A stretch of 64,000 bases of DNA, from the NCBI GenBank assembly GCA_003707115.1, contig PPNB01000004.1, forward strand, positions 124,001 through 188,000, written 5' to 3'. This stretch comes from Tortispora ganteri (Eukaryota). Positions 971 through 64,000 of the stretch are shown piece after piece. Position numbers and translations under genes: made by a program. Below the pieces are notes generated by a model that ran no database searches, had not been told where the DNA came from, and saw only the letters and a list, made by a program, of their open reading frames with translations. Numbering within the stretch: position 1 is the first letter of the stretch; each line of letters opens with the position of its first letter.

Positions 971-1159
971 GAAAATAAAATCTCGCTATAATAATCCGCG
1001 TGATATCTACAGTTAGATAACAGTGCCTTGTTTTCCAGCGTTCGTATACATATATTAAGATGTAATAAGATTTGTACCTCTATTGGTCCACATTTGTTAC
1101 CCTGCATCACCTCTTACTGTCAGTATATAACGCACACACAAGAATACCCCCTTCGTTAC

Positions 1160-1540
1160 AAGGATAAGTACGGTAGTCTCCAGGGCCGATAAAATTAGTC
1201 CGGGTTCTACTGAACCTTTTGGACCATCTAGTCAATAAGTTTATTATGGTCCAAGTGTGCCTGCGAACAAGCCCTGGGGCGCGCTGGCACCACTTTCTCC
1301 ACTCAACCAAGATTGGCGAGGTCCTTCAGAACGCCGACAGACACGAACATCGGCGTATAAACCGTACAGAAATACACAAGCCACATATATCTACATGAGA
1401 TTGTGTTTACGACCTAATACAGGTTTAGTTTCTTTGATTTTGATCCCGCCAAAGTCCAGTTCTTTTACACTTTGGTGATCCGCTGACCAACGACATGGAA
1501 GCCGACGTGAAAGCGTCTGATTTCGATACAGACTGCAAAA
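1160..1540 (+). ncRNA. Candidate structured non-coding RNA, family unidentified
   Basis: TATATAA at 1124-1130 followed by about eight nested or serial stems whose G-U pairs all favour the + strand (see findings). No convincing ORF. Boundaries are approximate. Confidence 0.45.
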
Positions 1541-3178
1541 TATATGTATAGAGGCAAGATATCTGTTATGATTCAGAACAATCTACTAATCAATGACGTT
1601 CGCGTAGTGGATACAGATACAAAGCTAGGCGCAACGAATGGACCTTAAAACACCGATCTCGCTCATTTTTTATATAACGAGAAGAGACACGGCCATAAGG
1701 TCGTTGACACGTTTTTAAGTAATTACTGCATATAGGTGGAAATCATTGATGTTATATTACTGTTAATTGGTCTGCACATTATATTTTCTATTTCTACGTA
1801 CGACATAGGATGCAAGTTACGCCACTTATAGCACTCAGAAAGATTTCAAAATAACTATACTGAAATCTGCATATATTTCTGCGATTAGTATTTATTTACT
1901 ATCCAATAGCGTACTTCAATATAGAAATAGATATGACATATGTCTGCATATGTATTAAGGTTTCGGATAATTTCGATAGATTAAAGCGAAAGCTTTCGCT
2001 TACGCAATAGGAACACCGTTCAAAAATAGCCAATGAATTACTATCGCTTAAACTTAACGAAATTTTCACTCCACATTATGAATTATTAAGGCCCCAATAA
2101 ATCGAGTTAGGGCTGCATCATTTTTTTAGGATACAAAATTTGTCTATATTGACTAATTCGAGGCTTTTAATGTAAAGACAAGGTGCATCACGTTACATTT
2201 TCAGCCAATAGGGGAAATTATACAGAAGCCTTATTCACGCTATGCGGGCTAGTCTTTCTGTTCAGAGACGGATTGAACAGTCTCCGAAGAGGTAGGAAAG
2301 GGTGAAGAGAGCGGAATGTTCTGTGGTATCTCCATTTTAATACTGTCAATCAGTTATCAAAGGATATCATCTCAATTATAAGGAAAATATTTATCGAACT
2401 GGATCCAAAAAGAAGCGTGCTTCATCCGTGGATAGGTAAATACACTGAGTTGGCATAACAACTTGCATTACTAGCGTTAGCACAAAATGTTTTAGGTGCT
2501 ATGACCTAACTAAGGCGGTGGGATGCAGACCAAAAACATATAAGACACTGGCATGCATGAAAAATGGTGGTGCATAGAGTGCGACTATAAAAATGAGAGG
2601 GGAAAATCAAAGGACGCAGAAATGAGCGAGATTGAAAGGTTGTATATGCAAACAAATAAAAGTTCTAGACGGTCTGGACTGTAAAGCCAACGATGGAACA
2701 AAAAACTGAGAGATTATGATTACCGTCACATGGCTTATTAGCTACTTTGTAGGCCAATTAAAAGCATTGAAAAAATATGCTATCTTATCTCTATATAGCA
2801 GCAGAAAGAAAAACCATGAGTGGGGTATATCTATATGAAATCAGGACAACAAAATGTCCACTAGCTTAGAAAATCACATGCGAACTTTAAATGATAAGGT
2901 TTGAGATGGATTCTTATATTATTTACCTTTCTTCCATCTTTGCCTGATATATAGGCACGCAATCGCGATACAACACTGACACTAGTCCAATACGAACGGA
3001 TACTTCTTCAAGGCTAGTGTAACCAACCTTACAGATTTAGAGGCGTAATAGTAGCTATACATTCAAGTTATAGGTCACTGCGCTCTGTGGCCAAGCCTTC
3101 TTTGCCTACCCTTCCCGAGATTTTACCCCGCGCTAGAACTGAACAGAGAACCAACCTAATACATCAGATTTTCCTTTA

Positions 3179-10161: not shown

Positions 10162-11826
10162 TTATGCAATTCTTTCTCGTCCCACCACAGCTAAGCCCCT
10201 CAATTGTTCCAGATTTTCCGTGACATGATTGTTTCCGAAAACTTCCATGTATTCAAGACCGCTATTCTGCCTCAAAATCTTCTGAACCAAACTGTCATCA
10301 ACTGATCGCACAAAGGAAAGGTCTAAAGACTTTAAATTATGACAATTCTCATATAGCGGGGCTAAGTCTTGTTCAGTTAATTTATATAGCGAGTTCAAGC
10401 TCAAATGAACCAAGTGAGGAGCGCAGCTTTGAAACATCTCTCGAATGGTTAAAGGTCCTGCTTCTACCGTCCTTGATAAACTCAAATCACTTATATTTAT
10501 CGCTGCATCCCATTGGAAAAACAATTTTTGCAAATCTTCATCATTAAGCTGAGGACAATCCGTAATGTGTAATGTAGTCAGCTGAGGCGAACAGTAGTCC
10601 TTCATGGCCTGTAGTGTATCTGCACGGAGTTCTTCGCAAGCTTCAAGTTTGAGGGTTTTTAGGCTGGATCCATGCTTCATGATCATACTGATAAATCCAT
10701 TTGATGCTTCAATAGAATCTTCTTCGGTGATCACAACGGATTCATCGGTAGGGTGGTATAATTCCAGATGCAATAGTTGGTTGAGGTTCGTTAGTGCAGC
10801 CAAATTCTTTAGGCTGAAGGAATCACATTGTCTTAAGGTCAGCTTAGAAATATTAGGGCAGCTTTTAGCCATACAAAGGAATGCTTCATCGTTAAAATTC
10901 AGCGTGTCTGAGACGGCAAACTCTTCTAAGTTTTCACCTATACTCTCAAAGAAGACTTTCCAAGAGGATGTGCCGACAAGGAACGGACCGTGCAATTGGA
11001 CGCGCTTTAAGTGTCGCATCCTTGAAAACATGTACTCAAATGTTTCCGAAGAAAGTCTTCCGCACATGCCCAATACCAGAGACTCTAAGTTAGGGGCATA
11101 TATGGCGATTGATCGTAAGGCATCGTCGCTGAGTGTTGCACAGTCCCAGAATTCTATGTGTGTTGCTTCTGGGCGAGCAAACAGTCTTAGAGATTGAGCA
11201 GTCAATGCTCTATTGCGGCAAATTGCGTGTGATAATTCTATAGCGTGACCTTCGTCAATATACCCTAGTGCTTCGAGATCATCTATATTCTGTACACAGA
11301 GTTGCAGGCACAGTTTCCTCAGAGACGGAACTCTACTGGCGCTTCGTTCAAGCAGTGCTTTAGCAGTATCTTTGATAACTTTTCTTTGGCTAGCAGACCT
11401 CGATTTTTTCGCAGCTCGTATGTTCTCTGTAGGCTCAGGGACTACAGAGTCAGCACGCGAGTCTAATAAGCTTTTTGAAGCTGATTCCACGGAAAGTTCA
11501 TAGATCTGAAGTTTTTCCGCGATAGCTACATCTCTCAGCTCTGTAAAACGAGTCTGATACTGTTTTGCTATTATTTCGGCTTCTGCATCAGTTACAGCAG
11601 CTTGTCTTTCGTGAAACTCGCTATCTACTTGCTCCAAAATGGCCGCCTCTTCTTCGGGCGATAATTCAATTGGTTCATCACTTTGTGCTAGATACCTATC
11701 CCGGATTTCCTTAGCGCTGATATTCTGTGATCTTAGAAATTCAGTCAACGCAGAATTAGGTCCTTTAACTTGAGAGCCGGTTGAATCGCCTAATTTTGAT
11801 CGCTTATACCATCTTGTACTGCTCAT
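10162..11826 (-). CDS. RAD7: Nucleotide excision repair LRR protein Rad7
   Basis: N-terminal VKGPNSALTEFL motif, VPSLRKLC and leucine-rich repeats ending LDLSFVRSVDD...VFGN. Confidence 0.88.
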   Translation of the reverse strand: MSSTRWYKRSKLGDSTGSQVKGPNSALTEFLRSQNISAKEIRDRYLAQSDEPIELSPEEEAAILEQVDSEFHERQAAVTDAEAEIIAKQYQTRFTELRDVAIAEKLQIYELSVESASKSLLDSRADSVVPEPTENIRAAKKSRSASQRKVIKDTAKALLERSASRVPSLRKLCLQLCVQNIDDLEALGYIDEGHAIELSHAICRNRALTAQSLRLFARPEATHIEFWDCATLSDDALRSIAIYAPNLESLVLGMCGRLSSETFEYMFSRMRHLKRVQLHGPFLVGTSSWKVFFESIGENLEEFAVSDTLNFNDEAFLCMAKSCPNISKLTLRQCDSFSLKNLAALTNLNQLLHLELYHPTDESVVITEEDSIEASNGFISMIMKHGSSLKTLKLEACEELRADTLQAMKDYCSPQLTTLHITDCPQLNDEDLQKLFFQWDAAINISDLSLSRTVEAGPLTIREMFQSCAPHLVHLSLNSLYKLTEQDLAPLYENCHNLKSLDLSFVRSVDDSLVQKILRQNSGLEYMEVFGNNHVTENLEQLRGLAVVGRERIA

Positions 11827-24480: not shown

Positions 24481-25566
24481 TTAAGCCCATCGTCCAAGCA
24501 ATGCCATCAAACCACATCCAACTAGTAAGAATAAGAAGCAGATGTAGAACTCACGGATTGGAGCTTTTCTGAAGTAATCAGTGAACAGGAAATCGTGGGC
24601 TAAAAGCTCAATCAGTCCTGTGTAAATTAAGATACCAGCAGAAATAGAGTCGAATACTCCATTAGTGATAGTTGCAGTCCTTCCTCCAGGAGGATAACTA
24701 TCGCGAACGCCTAAACCGATAGCAATTGCAATAGGTGTAGTTATGGAATAACCCAATGCCATGAGATACGGCGTCCAAGGTCTACCCTTCCAATCGATTT
24801 CTGCAAGTCTAGAGCCAAGACCAAGACCCTCAAAGCCTTGGTGGAAAACTAGAACAATATACAGAGTAATGAATTCTTCTCCAGAGACAGCGAGAGTTAA
24901 ACCAATAAAGACTGAATGGAAAATAACACCAAACTCAAGAATAAACACCTCACCAACTCTGGCAGCATACTCTATAACGGAAGCATCGTCTGTAGCCTCA
25001 TTAACAAATGCTTCCTTCACAATGGGCGTTGAAGATTCATCCCGTTCCGTTCCCTCAATCTGTGAATGGGCAACACCCTCATTGGGATGGTTGTGACCAA
25101 ATGTGAGAACTTCATTAACATCGGCTTCATTAGTGAAGCGATCGAATGAAGCATATCGCAGTAACATGAATTCCATATAGAACATACACATGATACTAAG
25201 CAGACAAATAGCCTGCGCCCATGGGTATTCTGTCCACGTGCCCGTCAAGCAAGGAGAGTATTCTAGAGCTTCAATAGCTGGATCAAGAAGATGGATAAAA
25301 GCCGTAGCAATAATCACACCTGAGCCGAAATACTTAAATAACAGAAGAACGTATTTGTTGGGAGTGAATCCTAATCGCCATTTTTTAAGAACGATAGGAG
25401 TCATAGTACCTAAAAATGAAGCCACCAAAATGACAAAGATAGATGAAATCCTGAGTCCCAGACGTCCATCGTACTCGTTGTCGTCGGAGCATACTTCTTC
25501 GTCATCATCTCTGCGGTAGTATCTGGCTAAGGCAGCAGTGGAAAAGAAAAGTAAATAGTTCAACAT
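24481..25566 (-). CDS. ZIP-family zinc transporter, copy A (Zrt1/Zrt2-like), 361 aa
   Basis: LRISSIFVI, KYFGSGVIIATAFIHLL, LEFGVIFHS, FHQGFEGLGLGSRL. First ATG is 25566. Confidence 0.93.
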   Translation of the reverse strand: MLNYLLFFSTAALARYYRRDDDEEVCSDDNEYDGRLGLRISSIFVILVASFLGTMTPIVLKKWRLGFTPNKYVLLLFKYFGSGVIIATAFIHLLDPAIEALEYSPCLTGTWTEYPWAQAICLLSIMCMFYMEFMLLRYASFDRFTNEADVNEVLTFGHNHPNEGVAHSQIEGTERDESSTPIVKEAFVNEATDDASVIEYAARVGEVFILEFGVIFHSVFIGLTLAVSGEEFITLYIVLVFHQGFEGLGLGSRLAEIDWKGRPWTPYLMALGYSITTPIAIAIGLGVRDSYPPGGRTATITNGVFDSISAGILIYTGLIELLAHDFLFTDYFRKAPIREFYICFLFLLVGCGLMALLGRWA

Positions 25567-27222: not shown

Positions 27223-28305
27223 CTAAGTGTAATGTCCAAGTGACGCCATTAAAGCACATCCCAGTAATAAGAAAAAGAAGCAAATGTAAAACTCACGGAT
27301 TGGAGCTAATCTGAAATAATCAGAGAACAGGAAATCGTGGGCTAAAAGCTCAATCAATCCTGTGTAAATTAAGATTCCAGCTGAAACAGAATCGAAGACA
27401 CCATTGGTGATAGTTGCGGTCATTCCTTCTGGAGAATAGCTATCACGGACACCTAAACCGATCGCTATAGTTATAGGTGAAGTTATAGCATATCCTAGGG
27501 CCATGAGATACGGCGTCCAAGGCCTACCCTTCCAGTCTATTTCAGCCAGCCTAGAGCCAAGACCTAGACCCTCAAAGCCTTGGTGGAAAACTAGAACAAC
27601 ATAGAGAGTAACGAATTCCTCTCCAGAGACGGCGAGAGTTAAACCTACAAAGGCTGAATGGAAAATAACACCGAACTCAAGAATGAATACTTCACTAACT
27701 TTGGCAGTATACTCGATTACAGAAGATCTATCAGCAGCCTCATTATCAAATGATTCTTTTACAATGGGCTCTGAAATCTTATCCTGTTTGATTTCCTGGA
27801 TCTGTGAAACGGGAATATCTTCATTGGGATGGTCATGACCAACTGTAAGAACATCAATAGCATCATCTTCGTCAGTTGAGTGTTTGAATGAAGCATATCG
27901 CAGTAACATGAATTCCATATAGAACATACACATGATACTAAGCAGACAAATAGCCTGCGCCCATGGGTATTCTGTCCACGTGCCCGTCAAGCAAGGAGAG
28001 TATTCTAGAGCTTCAATAGCTGGATCAAGAAGATGGATAAAAGCCGTAGCAATAATCACACCTGAGCCGAAATATTTAAATAACAGAAGAACGTATTTGT
28101 TGGGAGTGAATCCTAATCGCCATTTTCTAAGGGCAATAGGCGTTATGGTACCTAAAAATGAAGACACGAAAATGACAAATATAGAAGAAATTCTGAGTCC
28201 TATACGTCCGTCGAAGTCGTTATCATTGGAACAAACATCATCATCATCTCTGCGGTAGTATCTAGCAAAAACTACAGTCGCAAAAACAAGAAGGTAGTTT
28301 AGCAT
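27223..28305 (-). CDS. ZIP-family zinc transporter, copy B, 360 aa
   Basis: Paralogue of 24481-25566 with the same motifs. First ATG is 28305. Confidence 0.93.
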   Translation of the reverse strand: MLNYLLVFATVVFARYYRRDDDDVCSNDNDFDGRIGLRISSIFVIFVSSFLGTITPIALRKWRLGFTPNKYVLLLFKYFGSGVIIATAFIHLLDPAIEALEYSPCLTGTWTEYPWAQAICLLSIMCMFYMEFMLLRYASFKHSTDEDDAIDVLTVGHDHPNEDIPVSQIQEIKQDKISEPIVKESFDNEAADRSSVIEYTAKVSEVFILEFGVIFHSAFVGLTLAVSGEEFVTLYVVLVFHQGFEGLGLGSRLAEIDWKGRPWTPYLMALGYAITSPITIAIGLGVRDSYSPEGMTATITNGVFDSVSAGILIYTGLIELLAHDFLFSDYFRLAPIREFYICFFFLLLGCALMASLGHYT

Positions 28306-29648
28306 TATAGCTGATAGTGATACTAGTAAGAGATGAACAGTCTTCGATGAACGACTACTCACCGAGAGACGATGGTGTTTATGTTATTTTCTATTCCTCG
28401 AATTTGTAAGAAGGATAAAAGGAATTATCTTTATTTTTCGCCTGCTTATATAGTGCAAAGTTAGAATTGCAAAGATCCAGAAACCAAAAAAGATGGAAGA
28501 AAATAAACTCTGTAATTATGTAGCATAGATTTTCGCGTATAGGATCTATCATTATATATCTACATAATCTTGGCGGGGAAATATTAGTTTCCAGTCCTCG
28601 CAAAGCTTATTTCGTAGAGGGAAAAGGACACGAATAGATTTAGTTGTTCAAACAATATACAAAGGAAACGTTGAGTTCCAAGAAGCAGAAAAATTATAAA
28701 GGAGCAACAACAAACACCCCATTGAGAGTAAGTGGAACAAACTCCTGTCATTTAGAAGCATAATTGACAATAATAGAAACGGAGAAGCAGGGAAACCTCT
28801 TATCGCTAAACAAGTAAAGCTTAAAAAAAAGTAAAACAGTTTCTACTAATTATAGATGCATGCGCGAATCCACACGTGAAAACACGCAGATTAACTTAAT
28901 TGGTACATTTTATTTTGTCTATTTTACGAACTTATCATAGTAGATGGCGAGAAGGCTTTCTTGCAATCTAACTTTAAACAAGTCGTAATAGTCAAATTAT
29001 TAAGTTTACTATCCTATTGGTACCTCAACACTCTTATAAATCTGTTTAGATCAGTTTTTGTTAATATATTATCCTAGGACGGGTTGCAATATTCGTTCAT
29101 TAAAATGTAATGTAAACTCTGAGCTTTAGAAAATAGATTAACAAAGCTCAGATAAAGCTTCACAATGTAATGCTATTTAGAATGGCTGACGATCGTATTC
29201 GCCGCGCTATTTCTTGCGACATATGTGTCCTAAATAGAGTGAAACTCTATTTGTGCAAGCGAACCTTGAGCTCAAGATGATAGTGAAAGTCTTGCGCAGT
29301 TGTTCTAAAAGGACAGAACCGGTAAGCAGAGTCAGCTACGTCTAGATATCTATCAAATAACAGGTATTGAGAAGCCGACAATATTTGTCCCGAATAGAAG
29401 CACATATTGATTAAGTAGGGTAGCACGTGTTAACCGGCGTTCAATCGCCAAAGTCATACTAGTCTAATCTAAAGTTCAGTAAGGTTTCGAGTAAACTCAG
29501 ACGTGCAGGATGGAAAGATTATAACACTACGCTAACGAATCAGAGATTCTATAAAGCCACATACGAAAAGCTTAATTCATCACGGCTTGTTCGACTATAT
29601 CAAACTATCCAATGGAGGTAACCGTAATGTCCTATCAAAGCCTCATGA
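27223..29648. repeat. Tandem duplication unit B (ZIP gene + ~1.35 kb upstream)
   Basis: Homologous to 24481-26640 and ends just before the CTK1 stop codon. Confidence 0.85.
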
Positions 29649-30970: not shown

Positions 30971-31683
30971 TAATACTATAATATAGAGAAACACGTTAGT
31001 TTCAAAATGTGTCGTCTGCGAGGATGTGAAGAGAGGCAATAACAGTGACCAAACGAGTAGATACAAATAGGTTCCCTGATTTTAAGGAGAGTAAGCAATG
31101 TGTAGAGGAACCAAAGACAAGAACTATTTGAAATTGTTACCTAATATACCCAAAACGCAAAGATCGGCTTAACTAAGTAAAGAACCAACTAAAGATTATT
31201 GGAAACGGTATGATGATTAAAATATTAGATATACCACGGTTCCATGTGGTAAAACAGCTATTAAAGCAGTAATTCAAAGAATTGCTTGTTGATCTCAAAT
31301 GAACTGGTAATTAAGCTACTATCCAAATGAAAAATATATTCCACGAAATCAAAGCAAATTTTGTGTTAAGATACCGTTAGAGATCGTTATTCACTTAAGA
31401 GAATATTGAATTTTCTTAAGTATTGACTTGTGAGGTAGAGACACAAAGTCAAATATAGTAGCTAAGGCTAACAAGTCTGTAAACAGACCTCTGACGCACA
31501 AAGAGCCTTCTTTCATGTAGTAAAATAACGATGATCAAACATTGACAGAGATTTGAATATTATAAATACTATTACTTGACATTTGTAACTAGATGTTGCT
31601 CATTTTTTCATCAAAAGATGTATTTATCAGCATGTTTAAAATTCGGATTATGTATAATTGGCGAATAAACTTTACTGTTTCCT

Positions 31684-31764
31684 GGGAAGATGGCCGAGTG
31701 GTTATGGCGCTAGGTTCAGGTCCTAGTCACGCAAGTGTCGTGGGTTCGAATCCCACTCTTCTCA
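31684..31764 (+). tRNA. tRNA-Leu(CAG), intronless
   Basis: Acceptor GGGAAGA/TCTTCTC with discriminator A, D-arm TGGCCGAGTGG, anticodon arm CTAGG-TTCAGGT-CCTAG with G37, variable arm CAC-GCAA-GTG, T-arm GTGGG-TTCGAAT-CCCAC, T-run at 31770. Confidence 0.95.
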
Positions 31765-31988
31765 AGATATTTTTGTTGATTTTGTCAGTAGAAACGTTAT
31801 TTACTTTTTGTCTCGGATTATCTGATAAATATTTGTTTCTGTATATTCTACCTATATTGCCCGCTTTTTCCTTGTCAGGTTTGTGAAATCGAGATCTTGT
31901 TGACTTCGATCCGTCTAGTGTTACCTCAAGAACAGCGCACGCGAACTAAGCACTTTTCAATTCACACAACACTTTTGCATACATCTTT

Positions 31989-49373: not shown

Positions 49374-50900
49374 TCAGCTCACATGATGCATATGAACTTG
49401 TGTCTTGCATTCAGGTCTTCTTGTGAACGCGACAAGGTTCTTGCGCACTTCACTTGAAAGAATAGTTGATCCAGATGTGACTACAATCAGTTGCTCTTTG
49501 CACGGGGCCGCCAAATTCTCAAATTCTCGGCTCCAGTGCGGCTTACCGTACCAAGTTCGCGATTGAAGATGCGTTACAGGATCATGTAACATTGAATCTG
49601 CATCCAGAGTCATTAATTTTTCCACATCTTGAAGCTCAAATTCACTCGATATGAACATTTTCATCTTAAACATCATAGTTCCTAAGTTGCTCTCGAACTT
49701 CTGCAAGTGGGGTATTGCCCACTCAGCTGCTTCGAACGATGAACAAATCCAATAGAGATGGACTTTATTTAGTTTGATTTTTAGCTTTTTTTGCTGATTC
49801 ATCTTTAGCAAATAATTAAATAGAGAAATGAATGGAGTAAGTCCAACACCATTAGCGATGAGCAAACACGTGTCATATTCTGTACATAATGTCAATGATG
49901 GGCCATAAGGACCGGATAATAGAAATGTCGGAAAGCTGCTTTGTTTTGGCCCAGCTTTTTCAAATTCACAACTTGTCTGGCACAGTTTCTGACAGAGATC
50001 GTTCGTGAACCCACCTACTGACTTTATATAAAATTGCGCTCCTGATTCATCACTGGATAATGTGCAGGAAAAAGGATGATCTTGAGTGAGTGATATTTGA
50101 GGGCAACGTATTTGTGCATATTGTCCAGGACTTGCTCTGAATCCTGCCTTGTTTAATGACAGTTCTATGACTCCAGTAGGATGATATGCTGCAGCAAGGA
50201 TTTTAGCCGGATACCAGATCTGATGCAGGTTATATAGCTTTTCAGCAAAATATGCAAGTCCAAAGGGTAGCCACACAAGCCATCCCCATCCATGAGAATA
50301 AATAGCACCATCGTTGATACGAATCACATGTATAGACGCGTGTGCTGTCCATATAACCAGCAAGGGGATATATAGAATATGAGTGTATCTGAAAAGACTG
50401 TATATTATTTTGCGAATCCGCGCTAGAGCAGCAACTGATATGAATAGCAAAAGACATATTGCTATGTATCCGGTTATGGCTACATTTGAAGTGAAAAGTA
50501 ACTGTTTTAAATGCTTTCCGTCCGGCGCATGGCTACCAGCAGTAGTAAAGCCTGCAACATGGCCAATGATGTGTATAAGTGTAAAAAAGACCATCGAAAA
50601 TGCACATAATCTGTGTGCTCTTATTCTATCAAATTCCAAGTAGCCGTAAACTAACTTGCGAAGCTTTGGAATATCACTGAGACCATCGAGACTTGTACAA
50701 GCAAATGCAAATACTAAGGCTATGTCTAATTGCAAAACTGTACCAGCAGCTTTAGCTAGCGTCAAACCACCACCAAATAAAGATCGAGAATACGACAATT
50801 GCTCAGTTGCTAAATACACAATTAAAGCAGCCAAAAACACTACTAGTCTTATCAATATTTGCAGATAGTCAAACAAGCGGAAATTACTGAAGAGATGCAT
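49374..50900 (-). CDS. NADPH oxidase (gp91phox/NoxB-like) homologue with divergent C-terminal motifs, 508 aa
   Basis: About 6 TMs, heme His pairs H-x13-H and H-x12-H, PGQY, HPFS, GGFT, GPYG, GVGLTPF, HLYWIC, DPVTHLQSRTWYGKPHW. First ATG is 50900. Confidence 0.78.
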   Translation of the reverse strand: MHLFSNFRLFDYLQILIRLVVFLAALIVYLATEQLSYSRSLFGGGLTLAKAAGTVLQLDIALVFAFACTSLDGLSDIPKLRKLVYGYLEFDRIRAHRLCAFSMVFFTLIHIIGHVAGFTTAGSHAPDGKHLKQLLFTSNVAITGYIAICLLLFISVAALARIRKIIYSLFRYTHILYIPLLVIWTAHASIHVIRINDGAIYSHGWGWLVWLPFGLAYFAEKLYNLHQIWYPAKILAAAYHPTGVIELSLNKAGFRASPGQYAQIRCPQISLTQDHPFSCTLSSDESGAQFYIKSVGGFTNDLCQKLCQTSCEFEKAGPKQSSFPTFLLSGPYGPSLTLCTEYDTCLLIANGVGLTPFISLFNYLLKMNQQKKLKIKLNKVHLYWICSSFEAAEWAIPHLQKFESNLGTMMFKMKMFISSEFELQDVEKLMTLDADSMLHDPVTHLQSRTWYGKPHWSREFENLAAPCKEQLIVVTSGSTILSSEVRKNLVAFTRRPECKTQVHMHHVS

Positions 50901-51261
50901 GATACCTCTGACCAATTTGCCGTAGAAAATGGCACTGTCTAACCAAATATATTCATTTCGCCGCTCCTTTACATACCTGAAACGTAACGGCTCCTTTGTA
51001 TGAATAGCGTAGGATCTAAATCAGATGCTAGAATCGAGTTCTGGAACAGTATTACAATTAAACCATCTACAATTTAAGCTTCGCATTTATAGTACAAGAT
51101 AAGGCTTATTATTGGTCAGACCTATTCAAAGAGGACTAAGAATCAGATTAGGCATATATTAAGTTTCCTATGTAGATTCGTAATTGGCTAAATAATGTAT
51201 TATAGCGTTCAAAGGATTCTAATCGGTTTTAAAGTCATTAGTCCTCGGAGGTCAAAGAATT

Positions 51262-51307
51262 CAACAATGACACCTACAGGGTCATTGTTGCCTTCCTACA
51301 TGGGTAA
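51262..51307. promoter_or_regulatory. Inverted pair of CATTGT (alpha1/HMG-type) sites next to an Mcm1 box
   Basis: CAACAATGAC (51262-51271) / GTCATTGTTG (51281-51290) perfect inverted repeat, then TT-CC-TACATG-GG-TAA (51293-51307), upstream of STE3. Confidence 0.55.
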
Positions 51308-51722
51308 TCCCACTTTCAAGACTACACCAATGAACCTTCAGATTGATTCATGTACGTTCGCTTAAGTTCTAGAATGATTCCAGGTTGTTGCGGATGTCTG
51401 CAATATTCCAGTGATATATCGTGGCTAAGGCCGTTGGAGTAGAGCGGTGCCCGGGATTGACATATCTGAACTTTCCTTGTCATGCAATACCGATAAAGAG
51501 GTACATTCTTTCCCGATTCAGCGAAGTATAGAAGCTACATTGAGATTAGGAGCACTATATGCTCATATGATTGGCGCATTAGTGCTAATTATGGTCTGCA
51601 GACTTGTTTAAATGAGAATTAAGATTTTCTCTTTGAAAATAGCAGATCTGAAGTTATATAAGAGAATATGAAATCCGGGGATTTACAAGGATACTAATCT
51701 CGCGGGAAATCTTCAGAATATC

Positions 51723-52889
51723 ATGATATTCTTACCACTGACTATTCTATCCGGTATAGCAATAGTTCTTCCTATATTGCCTACTTTTGTGCACATACAG
51801 AACCGTAACTGGCCCGCTTTTATACTAGCTCTATGGCTAATATTGCTTAACATTTTCACATTTGTGAACTCCATAGTCTGGAGCGGCGAAGATGTAACAA
51901 AATGGTGGGATGGATATGGATTTTGCGACTTAGAAATCAGATTTTTTATCAGTGCTACAGTCGGAATTATGTCTTGCGTCATTGCTATCACCCGAAACTT
52001 GTCGATTATTGTTTCCAGAGAAGGCCCGAGGGTGTACTTTGCCGATACTAAAGTTCAGCGACGAAAGAGGCTTGCTATAGACCTCTCTATCTGTATTGTC
52101 CCTTTTGTACTTCTTAACGCACTATACTACATTATCCAACCGTCTAGATTTTATCTGGTTCAAAATGCTGGATGCACCGCACCAAATCTTACGACCTGGC
52201 TAGGACTAGTGCTGAATGTACTTTGGGGACCTATAGCTGCTTTAATCGCTTCTGGCTACGCAATCTTGACACTCTGCCGATACTTGAAACGTCGTCGAGA
52301 CTTTGAAGAAGTTATGCTTTCCAGTTCTTCTACCTCATCACACTTTTTCCGGTTATTATTATTTTCAAGCCTCATTGTTCTCATTATGTTTCCCCTCAGT
52401 CTGTATGTGCTGTATTTGAACACTTCCATGGGTGTGACTGGATACAGCTGGTCTGAAGTACACAGTCCTTTATGGGGTATGGTACCACGTTTTTTAGCTG
52501 ATGGCGCGCCAGTTAGTTCCTGGTTTACAGTTGTTGGGTCATACCTCTTCTTCATATTCTTTGGGTTTGGCAATGATGCTGTTATTCTATACAAGGGAAT
52601 ACTGAAGCGAGTATCTGTCGTGAGAAGTTCATTCTCCAGTTCTCACAGCAGTTCTGTCTCCTCAAAGCTAAGCGAATCAACTTTTGGCAAATCTGAAGCT
52701 GGAGACTGGGATCTAGAGTCTCAAAACGGACGTCGTCGATCTACTTTCGGGTGGACTAAATATAAGGAGACTACAACAGGCAGTGAAGATGATTTTATGG
52801 ATAACTGTACTTCACACAGTCTGGGTAATGAACTCAGAGTGAGAGAAGAAGTGACATTATCGCTTCAGGCTAAAGATACAGAATTGTAG
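51723..52889 (+). CDS. STE3: a-factor pheromone receptor (7-TM GPCR)
   Basis: NSIVWSG...WWDGYGFCD, YYIIQPSRF....AGC, HFFRLL, YSWSEVH, FFGFGNDA, Ser-rich tail. Confidence 0.93.
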   Translation: MIFLPLTILSGIAIVLPILPTFVHIQNRNWPAFILALWLILLNIFTFVNSIVWSGEDVTKWWDGYGFCDLEIRFFISATVGIMSCVIAITRNLSIIVSREGPRVYFADTKVQRRKRLAIDLSICIVPFVLLNALYYIIQPSRFYLVQNAGCTAPNLTTWLGLVLNVLWGPIAALIASGYAILTLCRYLKRRRDFEEVMLSSSSTSSHFFRLLLFSSLIVLIMFPLSLYVLYLNTSMGVTGYSWSEVHSPLWGMVPRFLADGAPVSSWFTVVGSYLFFIFFGFGNDAVILYKGILKRVSVVRSSFSSSHSSSVSSKLSESTFGKSEAGDWDLESQNGRRRSTFGWTKYKETTTGSEDDFMDNCTSHSLGNELRVREEVTLSLQAKDTEL

Positions 52890-62996: not shown

Positions 62997-64000
62997 TTAA
63001 TCTCTAGAGCTTTCCTCATGAAGTTCAAACTCACGCCAGAGGTTACCAGCTGCTATTATGATATTTTCCATGTCGGGGATTGCCGGTACTGCACTTAGAA
63101 ATTCTCGTATTTCAGATTGTTCAAGATTTTCCAGAGTGTCCATAAACGACTTTAGAATAGCCAAACACACAAAGGTCCATTGTTCGTGCAATGCGGGTGG
63201 AGGGCCCAATGAATCAGGCTTATATGACGCAGACCCGTGAACACCATCTGTGATCGGATTAGGATTCCAAAAAGGCTCAGAGAAACCAAACGAATCCAGA
63301 GTAACGGCAAGTGAAGTGTCAAATTCGTCAATATTGTGTGATGAAGGGAAACTATCACGGTGGTTGAAGGCATGGTTATAAGTAGCGGATCCAGAATGAT
63401 CAAAATATTCACGAAGGCCAAAGACCAAATCCCAGCATCGTGCTCTTTCATACGAACGCCAGGCTTTGGCTCCAAACCACTTAATCCACCACAGCAGCCA
63501 TTCATCACCGGAGTTAGCTCTATTGGTGAGGACTTCTTCTTCAGAAAATGAGTCTGACAAATCCCTACATAGAGTTCTGAAGGCCGCAAGGAAAGACGCA
63601 ATGCGCTCAGCTATGGGCGAGTCAAGCGGTCCCTGCGGAGCTGTCACGCCGTGAGTTGGTACGTGAAAAAATACCAGAAGAACTCTCTCAAACACGACAG
63701 GGAATGAGAACAAATCATCAGGAACATTGGTACCAGGTAAGTATGTCATTTCAATAAGGTGTTCAGTATCTTCAGAACGCCGTACGATAAGCCAGTCGGC
63801 GAGAGATAAAGCGACATATACCATTCCACGTTCGTAAGGGATATCTCTACCCCTAACTTCAAGAAACCGCACGACAGCTTCTTCCACTTGTGTATATACG
63901 TATTCGTCATTTGCAGATTCCCAAGGGTCTGTAGGGCTTGATCCACTGGAAGAAGCAGAGCTTTCATTAGTTGACGTTCTCGGAGTGTTTTCACGTTTTA
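62997..64000 (-). CDS. TBC/Rab-GAP-like protein, probably Oca5 family; 3' part, gene continues beyond the right edge
   Basis: Frame is open from position 64000 to the stop at 62997. YERGM, WLLWWIKWFG, RCWDLVFG and LEQSEIREFL motifs. Family assignment is from memory. Confidence 0.6.
   Translation of the reverse strand, partial: KRENTPRTSTNESSASSSGSSPTDPWESANDEYVYTQVEEAVVRFLEVRGRDIPYERGMVYVALSLADWLIVRRSEDTEHLIEMTYLPGTNVPDDLFSFPVVFERVLLVFFHVPTHGVTAPQGPLDSPIAERIASFLAAFRTLCRDLSDSFSEEEVLTNRANSGDEWLLWWIKWFGAKAWRSYERARCWDLVFGLREYFDHSGSATYNHAFNHRDSFPSSHNIDEFDTSLAVTLDSFGFSEPFWNPNPITDGVHGSASYKPDSLGPPPALHEQWTFVCLAILKSFMDTLENLEQSEIREFLSAVPAIPDMENIIIAAGNLWREFELHEESSRD

Follow-up and report, generated by a model that had tools for sequence, protein, structure and literature searches.

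The region studied here lies in a stretch of 64,000 nucleotides from contig PPNB01000004.1 of Tortispora ganteri (hereafter the window), i.e. DNA of a Tortispora-type, early-diverging budding yeast whose genome is compact and largely intron-free, with a G+C content of around 40 %. Our subject is an 822 bp spacer (positions 50901–51722) between two divergently oriented genes, one for a very divergent flavocytochrome of the NOX family and one for the pheromone receptor STE3, and in particular a symmetric element within this spacer that consists of an inverted repeat and an adjoining MADS/Mcm1-like box.

The NOX-family gene (49374–50900, minus strand; 508 aa) was assigned by Pfam domains and structure matches, while STE3 (51723–52889, plus strand; 388 aa) encodes a receptor for lipopeptide pheromones of the a-factor type and matches PF02076 over the full length of the profile (E 5e-78, positions 1–292 of 292). 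Therefore, the two gene identities proposed in an earlier interpretation of this DNA (the sequence-only reading) hold, and their divergent arrangement, with ORFs (open reading frames) on the minus and plus strands around the spacer, is genuine. No further mating genes were found among the 37 window ORFs scanned.

The sequence-only reading had also suggested a look at the synteny of both genes in relatives, and the adjacency was indeed found in one close relative, Tortispora caseinolytica. There, the orthologues of NOX (ODV90775.1, 85 % identity, 508 aa) and STE3 (ODV90776.1, 94 % identity across the 286 aa of a partial model), which for both genes are the best database matches, carry consecutive accessions on a 3,113,199-bp scaffold, so that adjacency is read from accession order alone and not from gene orientation or spacer sequence. 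Since the two species are closely related (85–94 % protein identity), this conservation tells little. As measured against T. caseinolytica, NOX is diverging faster than its neighbour STE3 (85 % versus 94 %).

Within the species, contigs assembled from public sequencing runs showed 17–18 single-base differences and no indels relative to the window in the 10 kb between 46000 and 56000. One of them is in the spacer (51638, in one run only), none in the element and four inside NOX and STE3, these four all synonymous. These differences are too few to measure constraint on the element. Moreover, the two runs share the same contig sizes and depths and may therefore be a single data set filed twice. 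Of two other runs, one matched only two short pieces of an aminotransferase gene and the other matched nothing.

At 822 bp, the spacer is the seventh longest gap between ORFs of at least 150 aa in the window and about fourfold the median gap of 191 bp, in line with its earlier description as long for this genome; a spacer of around four times the median length fits the expectation for a regulated gene. The TATA-box pattern TATAWAWR matches twice in the spacer (0.53 expected), once facing each gene: TATAAATG (51084–51091, minus strand) lies 183 nt before the NOX ATG and TATATAAG (51655–51662, plus strand) 60 nt before the STE3 ATG. Judged by these motifs, two predicted core promoters, each with a TATA box for one of the genes, make the spacer a divergent promoter region. 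A small gene or RNA was considered as an explanation for the spacer and rejected, as it contains no tRNA and no Rfam match and its longest ATG-initiated ORF measures 56 aa. Patterns for stress, iron, copper, Yap1, Gcn4, Ume6, Ndt80 and a1-alpha2 sites gave no match in the spacer.

The inverted repeat and the adjoining box

The inverted repeat sits between the two TATA boxes, 170 nt from that of NOX and 364 nt from that of STE3. Its perfect 10-nt arms, CAACAATGAC (51262–51271) and GTCATTGTTG (51281–51290), are separated by 9 nt and can be extended to 15-nt arms (51257–51271 and 51281–51295) in which 13 of 15 positions are complementary, so that the full repeat spans 51257–51295. Each arm contains AACAATG, a core of sequence-specific HMG and alpha-box proteins, which reads GTCATTGT on the other strand. 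As single-stranded DNA, the repeat folds at −13.5 kcal/mol (z = −4.2).

The MADS/Mcm1-like box TTCCTACATGGGTAA, which can be parsed as TTCC-TACATG-GGTAA (51293–51307, plus strand), follows 6 nt past the CATTGT of the STE3-side arm. Its CC-N6-GG core occupies 51295–51304, with CC at 51295–51296 and GG at 51303–51304. The box is present on the STE3 side only; to the left of the NOX-side arm there is no CC-N6-GG. Both the perfect repeat with its 9-nt spacing and the adjoining CC-N6-GG had been placed at exactly these coordinates before. The distance from the element to the STE3 ATG is 432 nt.

A pattern scan revealed further HMG-type cores of the form TCAAAG(A/G), three on the plus strand (51126, 51209 and 51252) and two on the minus strand (50993 and 51630), the latter outside the cluster at 51126–51258. 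Overall, the spacer shows a modest excess of HMG-type cores, with 8 occurrences of WCAAWG (3.0 expected, P 0.013) and 5 of [AT]CAAAG[AG] (0.86 expected, P 0.002). WWCAAWG is present 6 times (2.0 expected), and as many copies are found in each of four other regions of the window; the count of the spacer is matched by 15 of 1264 sliding windows, which fall into five regions.

In contrast to the repeat and the box, the heptamer TGAAACG (50978–50984, plus strand) did not keep the role that the sequence-only reading had given it. It lies where that reading had put it, and its interpretation as a pheromone-response element (PRE) fails on several counts. The consensus of the Ste12 PRE, TGAAACA, which lies upstream of the core promoter and usually in several copies, differs from it; 10 copies of TGAAACG in the window correspond to the chance level; and the spacer holds a single TGAAACG and no TGAAACA, i.e. 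no Ste12 element of that kind. Furthermore, the heptamer is located downstream of the NOX TATA box and before the NOX ATG, and so probably in or near the transcribed leader rather than in the position of an upstream element. We therefore judge it to be a chance occurrence.

Two side observations belong to the spacer. The first is the 56-aa ORF itself (51195–51365, plus strand), which overlaps the palindrome and ends in C-T-F-A-stop, a CaaX-like end as in the precursors of lipopeptide a-factors. Translation from its internal ATGs at 51267, 51300 and 51327 would yield 32, 21 and 11 aa, respectively. C-x-x-x ends are found in 14 of 395 short window ORFs (20–70 aa, all frames), and a CaaX filter, defined after this ORF had been seen, was passed by this ORF only. 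Its mature-peptide region is not hydrophobic, and the ORF is probably a product of chance, though it lies beside the gene of an a-factor receptor. The second is another inverted repeat, formed by ATACCTCTGACCAAT (50902–50916) and ATTGGTCAGACCTAT (51111–51125), 194 nt apart and complementary at 13 of 15 positions, which brackets the NOX TATA box and leader and may be of chance origin as well.

A candidate alpha-specific upstream element of STE3

Across budding yeasts, STE3 and other alpha-specific genes are activated by MATalpha1 together with Mcm1 (PMC2253631; bioRxiv 10.1101/565234). Tortispora species are described as heterothallic, and MATalpha genes are reported for T. caseinolytica (PMC6692504). 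The alpha-specificity of STE3 in the present species is assumed from other yeasts (bioRxiv 10.1101/565234). Against this background, we tentatively favour the reading, plausible from the arrangement of its motifs, that the element is an alpha-specific upstream activating sequence (UAS) of STE3 of the alpha1–Mcm1 type, equipped with a second, inverted alpha1/HMG core. On this view, the ACAATGAC core would be the site of MATalpha1, an alpha-box protein, and an Mcm1 dimer would occupy the weak CC-N6-GG box cooperatively with it, as at the alpha-specific genes of Saccharomyces cerevisiae. Joint binding of both proteins at the element would make STE3 alpha-specific, while the second, inverted core may bring in another HMG-type molecule or increase occupancy. 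The binding proteins and the cell-type specificity are what we infer here from motifs, gene identities, geometry and an adjacency in one close relative that were observed directly.

The core ACAATGAC is present in both arms, and on the minus strand the STE3-side arm shows the succession MADS-like box, 6 nt, ACAATGAC. In S. cerevisiae, ACAATGAC is the core of the alpha1 ‘Q’ site, and the alpha-specific site of that species has the same order and orientation, i.e. MADS box and then core, with a gap of 3 nt. As in the S. cerevisiae UAS, a ACAATGAC-type core thus adjoins a degenerate MADS box upstream of STE3; unlike there, the Tortispora site has two copies of the core in inverted orientation, a box centre less rich in A/T and a wider gap. 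When the 16-mer at 51292–51307 was ranked against a 16-nt P-box consensus, 11 of 16 positions matched and 5 did not, which places it among the 29 best of around 64,000 positions. The MADS half-site of alpha-specific genes in S. cerevisiae is itself degenerate.

The earlier interpretation had called the box an Mcm1 box and had referred to a composite TCATTGT/Mcm1 site as the established place of STE3 activation by MATalpha1 plus Mcm1. Of the former, the CC-N6-GG core and the TTCC and GGTAA flanks are present, while strict MADS patterns fail; of the latter, the core and a MADS-like box do lie upstream of STE3, while a direct transfer of the S. cerevisiae site to this lineage is not warranted.

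Several points weigh against an alpha1–Mcm1 element. The spacer contains neither CCWWWWWWGG nor CCYWWWNNRG, the strict forms of a MADS site, and the centre of the box, TACATG, has two non-A/T positions. The 6 nt between core and box differ from the 3 nt of S. cerevisiae. Nor is the repeat as such exceptional, as the window holds two perfect inverted repeats with arms of 10 nt and loops of at most 20 nt, against a simulated mean of 2.13. For the protein side, the alpha1 motif ‘has clearly changed’ between yeast species, as stated in PMC2253631, which is why the S. cerevisiae site is not simply transferable. In addition, experiments in Aspergillus established ATTGA, and not ATTGT, as the alpha-box core (PMC8022922), and ACAATG is also the site of MATA_HMG proteins such as Mat1-Mc of Schizosaccharomyces pombe (PMC1693924), so that the core does not single out the binding protein.

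The same figures bear on the possibility that the palindrome and the box are a chance sequence with no regulatory role, and STE3 and NOX mere neighbours with independent promoters. The palindrome taken by itself is not above chance in number: the observed count equals expectation, and 56 % of 200 Markov-simulated windows hold at least two perfect 10-nt inverted repeats. The loose composite of CATTGT followed by CC-N6-GG within 12 nt is found once in the window, at this element, where a rough estimate predicts about 1.4; the box fails the strict MADS patterns; and a meaning was assigned to the motifs after the fact. On the other side, the same simulation gives P 0.03 for a perfect 10-nt inverted repeat within the 822-bp spacer, and a random 10-mer arm would bear ACAATG or CATTGT with P of around 0.003. 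Of the six copies of GTCATTGT in the window, counted on both strands, two are in the inverted repeat. The joint probability of a repeat with this core in the STE3 spacer is about 1e-4, before correction for alternative stories, and a P-box-like 16-mer from the top 0.05 % lies 2 nt from the repeat. What goes beyond chance is therefore not the palindrome itself, but what it contains and where it lies, namely upstream of STE3, the one gene where such a composite is expected. Taken together, we regard a pure coincidence as unlikely, albeit with some weight.

The NOX-family oxidase and possible joint control

The predicted NOX-family protein contains the Pfam domains Ferric_reduct, FAD_binding_8 and NAD_binding_6, the FAD motif HPFS at residue 275 and the NADPH motif GVGLTPF at residue 351. 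Its heme histidines (H96-x13-H110 and H174-x12-H187) are all four invariant in an alignment with named NOX proteins, and a spacing of 13/12 is given as typical of NOX and FRO proteins, versus 13/13 in FRE (PMC4206789). The top match among solved structures was NOX2 (E 8e-36), followed by a cyanobacterial NOX5, DUOX1 and NOX5. A HMMER search returned 3163 matches at E ≤0.001, the best of which beyond T. caseinolytica were only 23–31 % identical. Among 20 matches looked up, the informatively named ones were NADPH oxidase B (Pisolithus), NADPH oxidase (Gigaspora, Paraphelidium and a metagenome protein) and NOX3; several others were unnamed, and, generic ‘ferric reductase’ domain labels aside, none bore the name FRE. 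Word-index protein searches with NOX and STE3 gave only the T. caseinolytica orthologues and weak plant FRO matches.

Other hallmarks of the family are missing. In place of the C-terminal CGP motif, the window protein and its T. caseinolytica orthologue carry SGS, while five of the six other aligned proteins have CGP and one, P0069, has CGS. Likewise, no terminal aromatic residue is found, as the protein ends in ...HMHHVS, whereas the final residues of named NOX proteins are (E/K)(N/S)F. A FastTree tree with 72 rows places both Tortispora proteins next to two unnamed ones, on a branch with a length of 1.69. By most of its defining features, the oxidase is thus a predicted member of the NOX family, though an aberrant one, whose subfamily is not settled by the tree. 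The very long branch, together with the absence of CGP and of a terminal aromatic residue, renders its predicted oxidase activity uncertain. No NoxR or NoxD domains were found among the window ORFs scanned.

P0069 is the nearest neighbour in the tree for which DNA is available. Its grouping with the Tortispora oxidase probably reflects long-branch attraction, since the metagenome contigs of P0069 look like giant-virus DNA. These two contigs contain no STE3. On the metagenome contigs L001 (1558–2997) and L002 (9702–11165), a NOX homologue of 479–487 aa, 26 % identical to the window protein, is accompanied by genes for DNA polymerase B, the RNR small subunit, ankyrin and OTU proteins in tight, AT-rich, intron-free arrays; judged by this gene content, both look like giant-virus DNA bearing a NOX-like gene.

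The sequence-only reading had proposed that the element could drive both genes. Such a bidirectional element, dependent on mating type or pheromone, would activate STE3 together with NOX and bring the production of reactive oxygen species (ROS) into the mating programme. Its location between both TATA boxes, nearer to that of NOX, and the symmetry of the repeat, which suits action in two directions, are consistent with this idea, as is the adjacency of both genes in T. caseinolytica. There is also a precedent in S. pombe, where mam2 and its divergent neighbour SPAC11H11.03c share one common motif made of an M-box and a Ste11-box and are both M-specific (PMC1693924). Like the M-specific elements of S. 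pombe, the Tortispora spacer has an ACAATG-type HMG site in the promoter of a pheromone-receptor gene with a divergent neighbour. Unlike there, where the partner site is a Ste11 box (AACAAAGAAA) 14–26 bp from the M-box and not a MADS box (PMC1693924), the spacer holds an M-box-like core and no AACAAAG, but only TCAAAG-type cores and one TACAAAG, and the receptor is of the STE3 type, while mam2 encodes one of the STE2 type.

Functional links between NOX enzymes and mating have been published too. Yno1/Aim14, the endoplasmic reticulum (ER) NADPH oxidase of S. cerevisiae, produces a ROS burst upon exposure to alpha-factor and has a predicted Ste12 site at its promoter, according to PMC7926930. 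Nox1/A is described as required for sexual development and fusion, and Nox2/B as acting upstream of Ste2/Ste3 in peroxidase chemotropism in Fusarium and Colletotrichum (PMC11491335). The window protein resembles Yno1 in being a NOX-superfamily enzyme of a budding yeast, the tie to the pheromone response being that of Yno1 (PMC7926930). By description, however, Yno1 is nearer to FRE than to NOX (PMC4206789), whereas among named proteins the window protein is best matched by NOX2/3 and fungal NoxB, and no linkage of Yno1 to STE3 is described. Like fungal NoxA and NoxB, the window protein is a predicted NOX catalytic subunit whose sequence holds the FAD and NADPH motifs as well as all four heme histidines; yet identity is only about 25 %, and the window protein sits on a very long branch and lacks CGP and the terminal aromatic residue. 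The fungal Nox–Ste2/Ste3 systems are not described as gene neighbours.

The earlier statement that no description of such a pairing was known thus holds for the gene arrangement only. A literature search listed no paper whose title or abstract describes a divergent pair of STE3 and an NADPH oxidase gene, and looking through paper texts for the motif alongside Mcm1 turned up nothing but primer noise. Functional coupling, on the other hand, is in print (PMC7926930 and PMC11491335), so that a functional link between NOX and pheromone is already known, as is, in S. pombe, a mating-type element shared by a receptor gene and its neighbour.

Despite these precedents, we consider joint control rather improbable. 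The only MADS-like box lies on the STE3 side, the adjacency is known only from a close relative, the PRE-like heptamer is at chance level, and the activity of the aberrant oxidase is uncertain. In addition, every gene has neighbours, and the story was picked after the pair had been seen. Any effect of the element on NOX is something that we infer and do not observe.

A further explanation, likewise improbable in our view, is that the cores are read by another HMG-box protein, e.g. of the MATa2/Mat1-Mc type, Ste11-like or Rox1-like, which would control NOX or both genes in an a-specific manner or in response to oxygen or stress. AACAATG is indeed a generic HMG/SOX-type core, the M-boxes of S. 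pombe read (C)AACAATG (PMC1693924), HMG-type cores are enriched in the spacer as shown above, and the element is nearer to the NOX TATA box. Yet the spacer has no Ste11-box (AACAAAG) and no match to the Rox1-type pattern YYYATTGTT, and four other regions of the window have an equal density of WWCAAWG. Moreover, placed in front of an alpha-specific receptor gene such as STE3, an activator of the a2 type would work in cells of the wrong type. That the symmetric HMG/MADS element is a bidirectional mating-type switch tying a relic, fast-evolving NOX to STE3 appears highly improbable. It is nevertheless tempting to speculate that the same cores might serve either regulator, as alpha1 and a2 are both of the HMG type and both work with Mcm1: they might form a single-locus toggle, which alpha1 would set to STE3 expression in alpha cells and a2 to expression of NOX or the CaaX-like ORF in a cells.

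Other features of the window and biological meaning

Elsewhere in the window, two tandem genes for ZIP-family metal transporters (24481–25566 and 27223–28305, both on the minus strand) have unusually long upstream gaps of 1656 and 1366 bp, respectively. The second of these gaps contains the only other perfect 10-nt inverted repeat of the window, TCTGAGCTTT-n15-AAAGCTCAGA (29118–29152). Large ORF-free gaps extend over 971–3178 and 30971–31988, the latter with a tRNA-Leu(CAG) at 31683–31765. For two ORFs on the minus strand (10162–11826, 554 aa, and 62997–63824, 275 aa), no Pfam family was found at E ≤1e-5.

Ascomycete yeasts are reported to be without NOX genes apart from Yno1 and Fre8 (PMC4206789 and PMC5728582), and a literature search listed no paper that pairs NADPH oxidase with Lipomyces or Trigonopsis. 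Despite this reported absence, a protein with NOX-type heme spacing and NOX proteins as best matches persists in Tortispora. If it were co-regulated with STE3, the locus would offer a simple unicellular model of the link between NOX and mating or fusion in filamentous fungi.

The tentatively favoured alpha1–Mcm1 element upstream of STE3 would be a mating-type UAS of an ordinary kind, unusual in its doubled form and located in a lineage that has received little study. If this reading is correct, the alpha-specific cis-code would become known for one of the lineages of budding yeasts that branched off earliest, which would help in understanding the much-studied rewiring of the a/alpha circuits.

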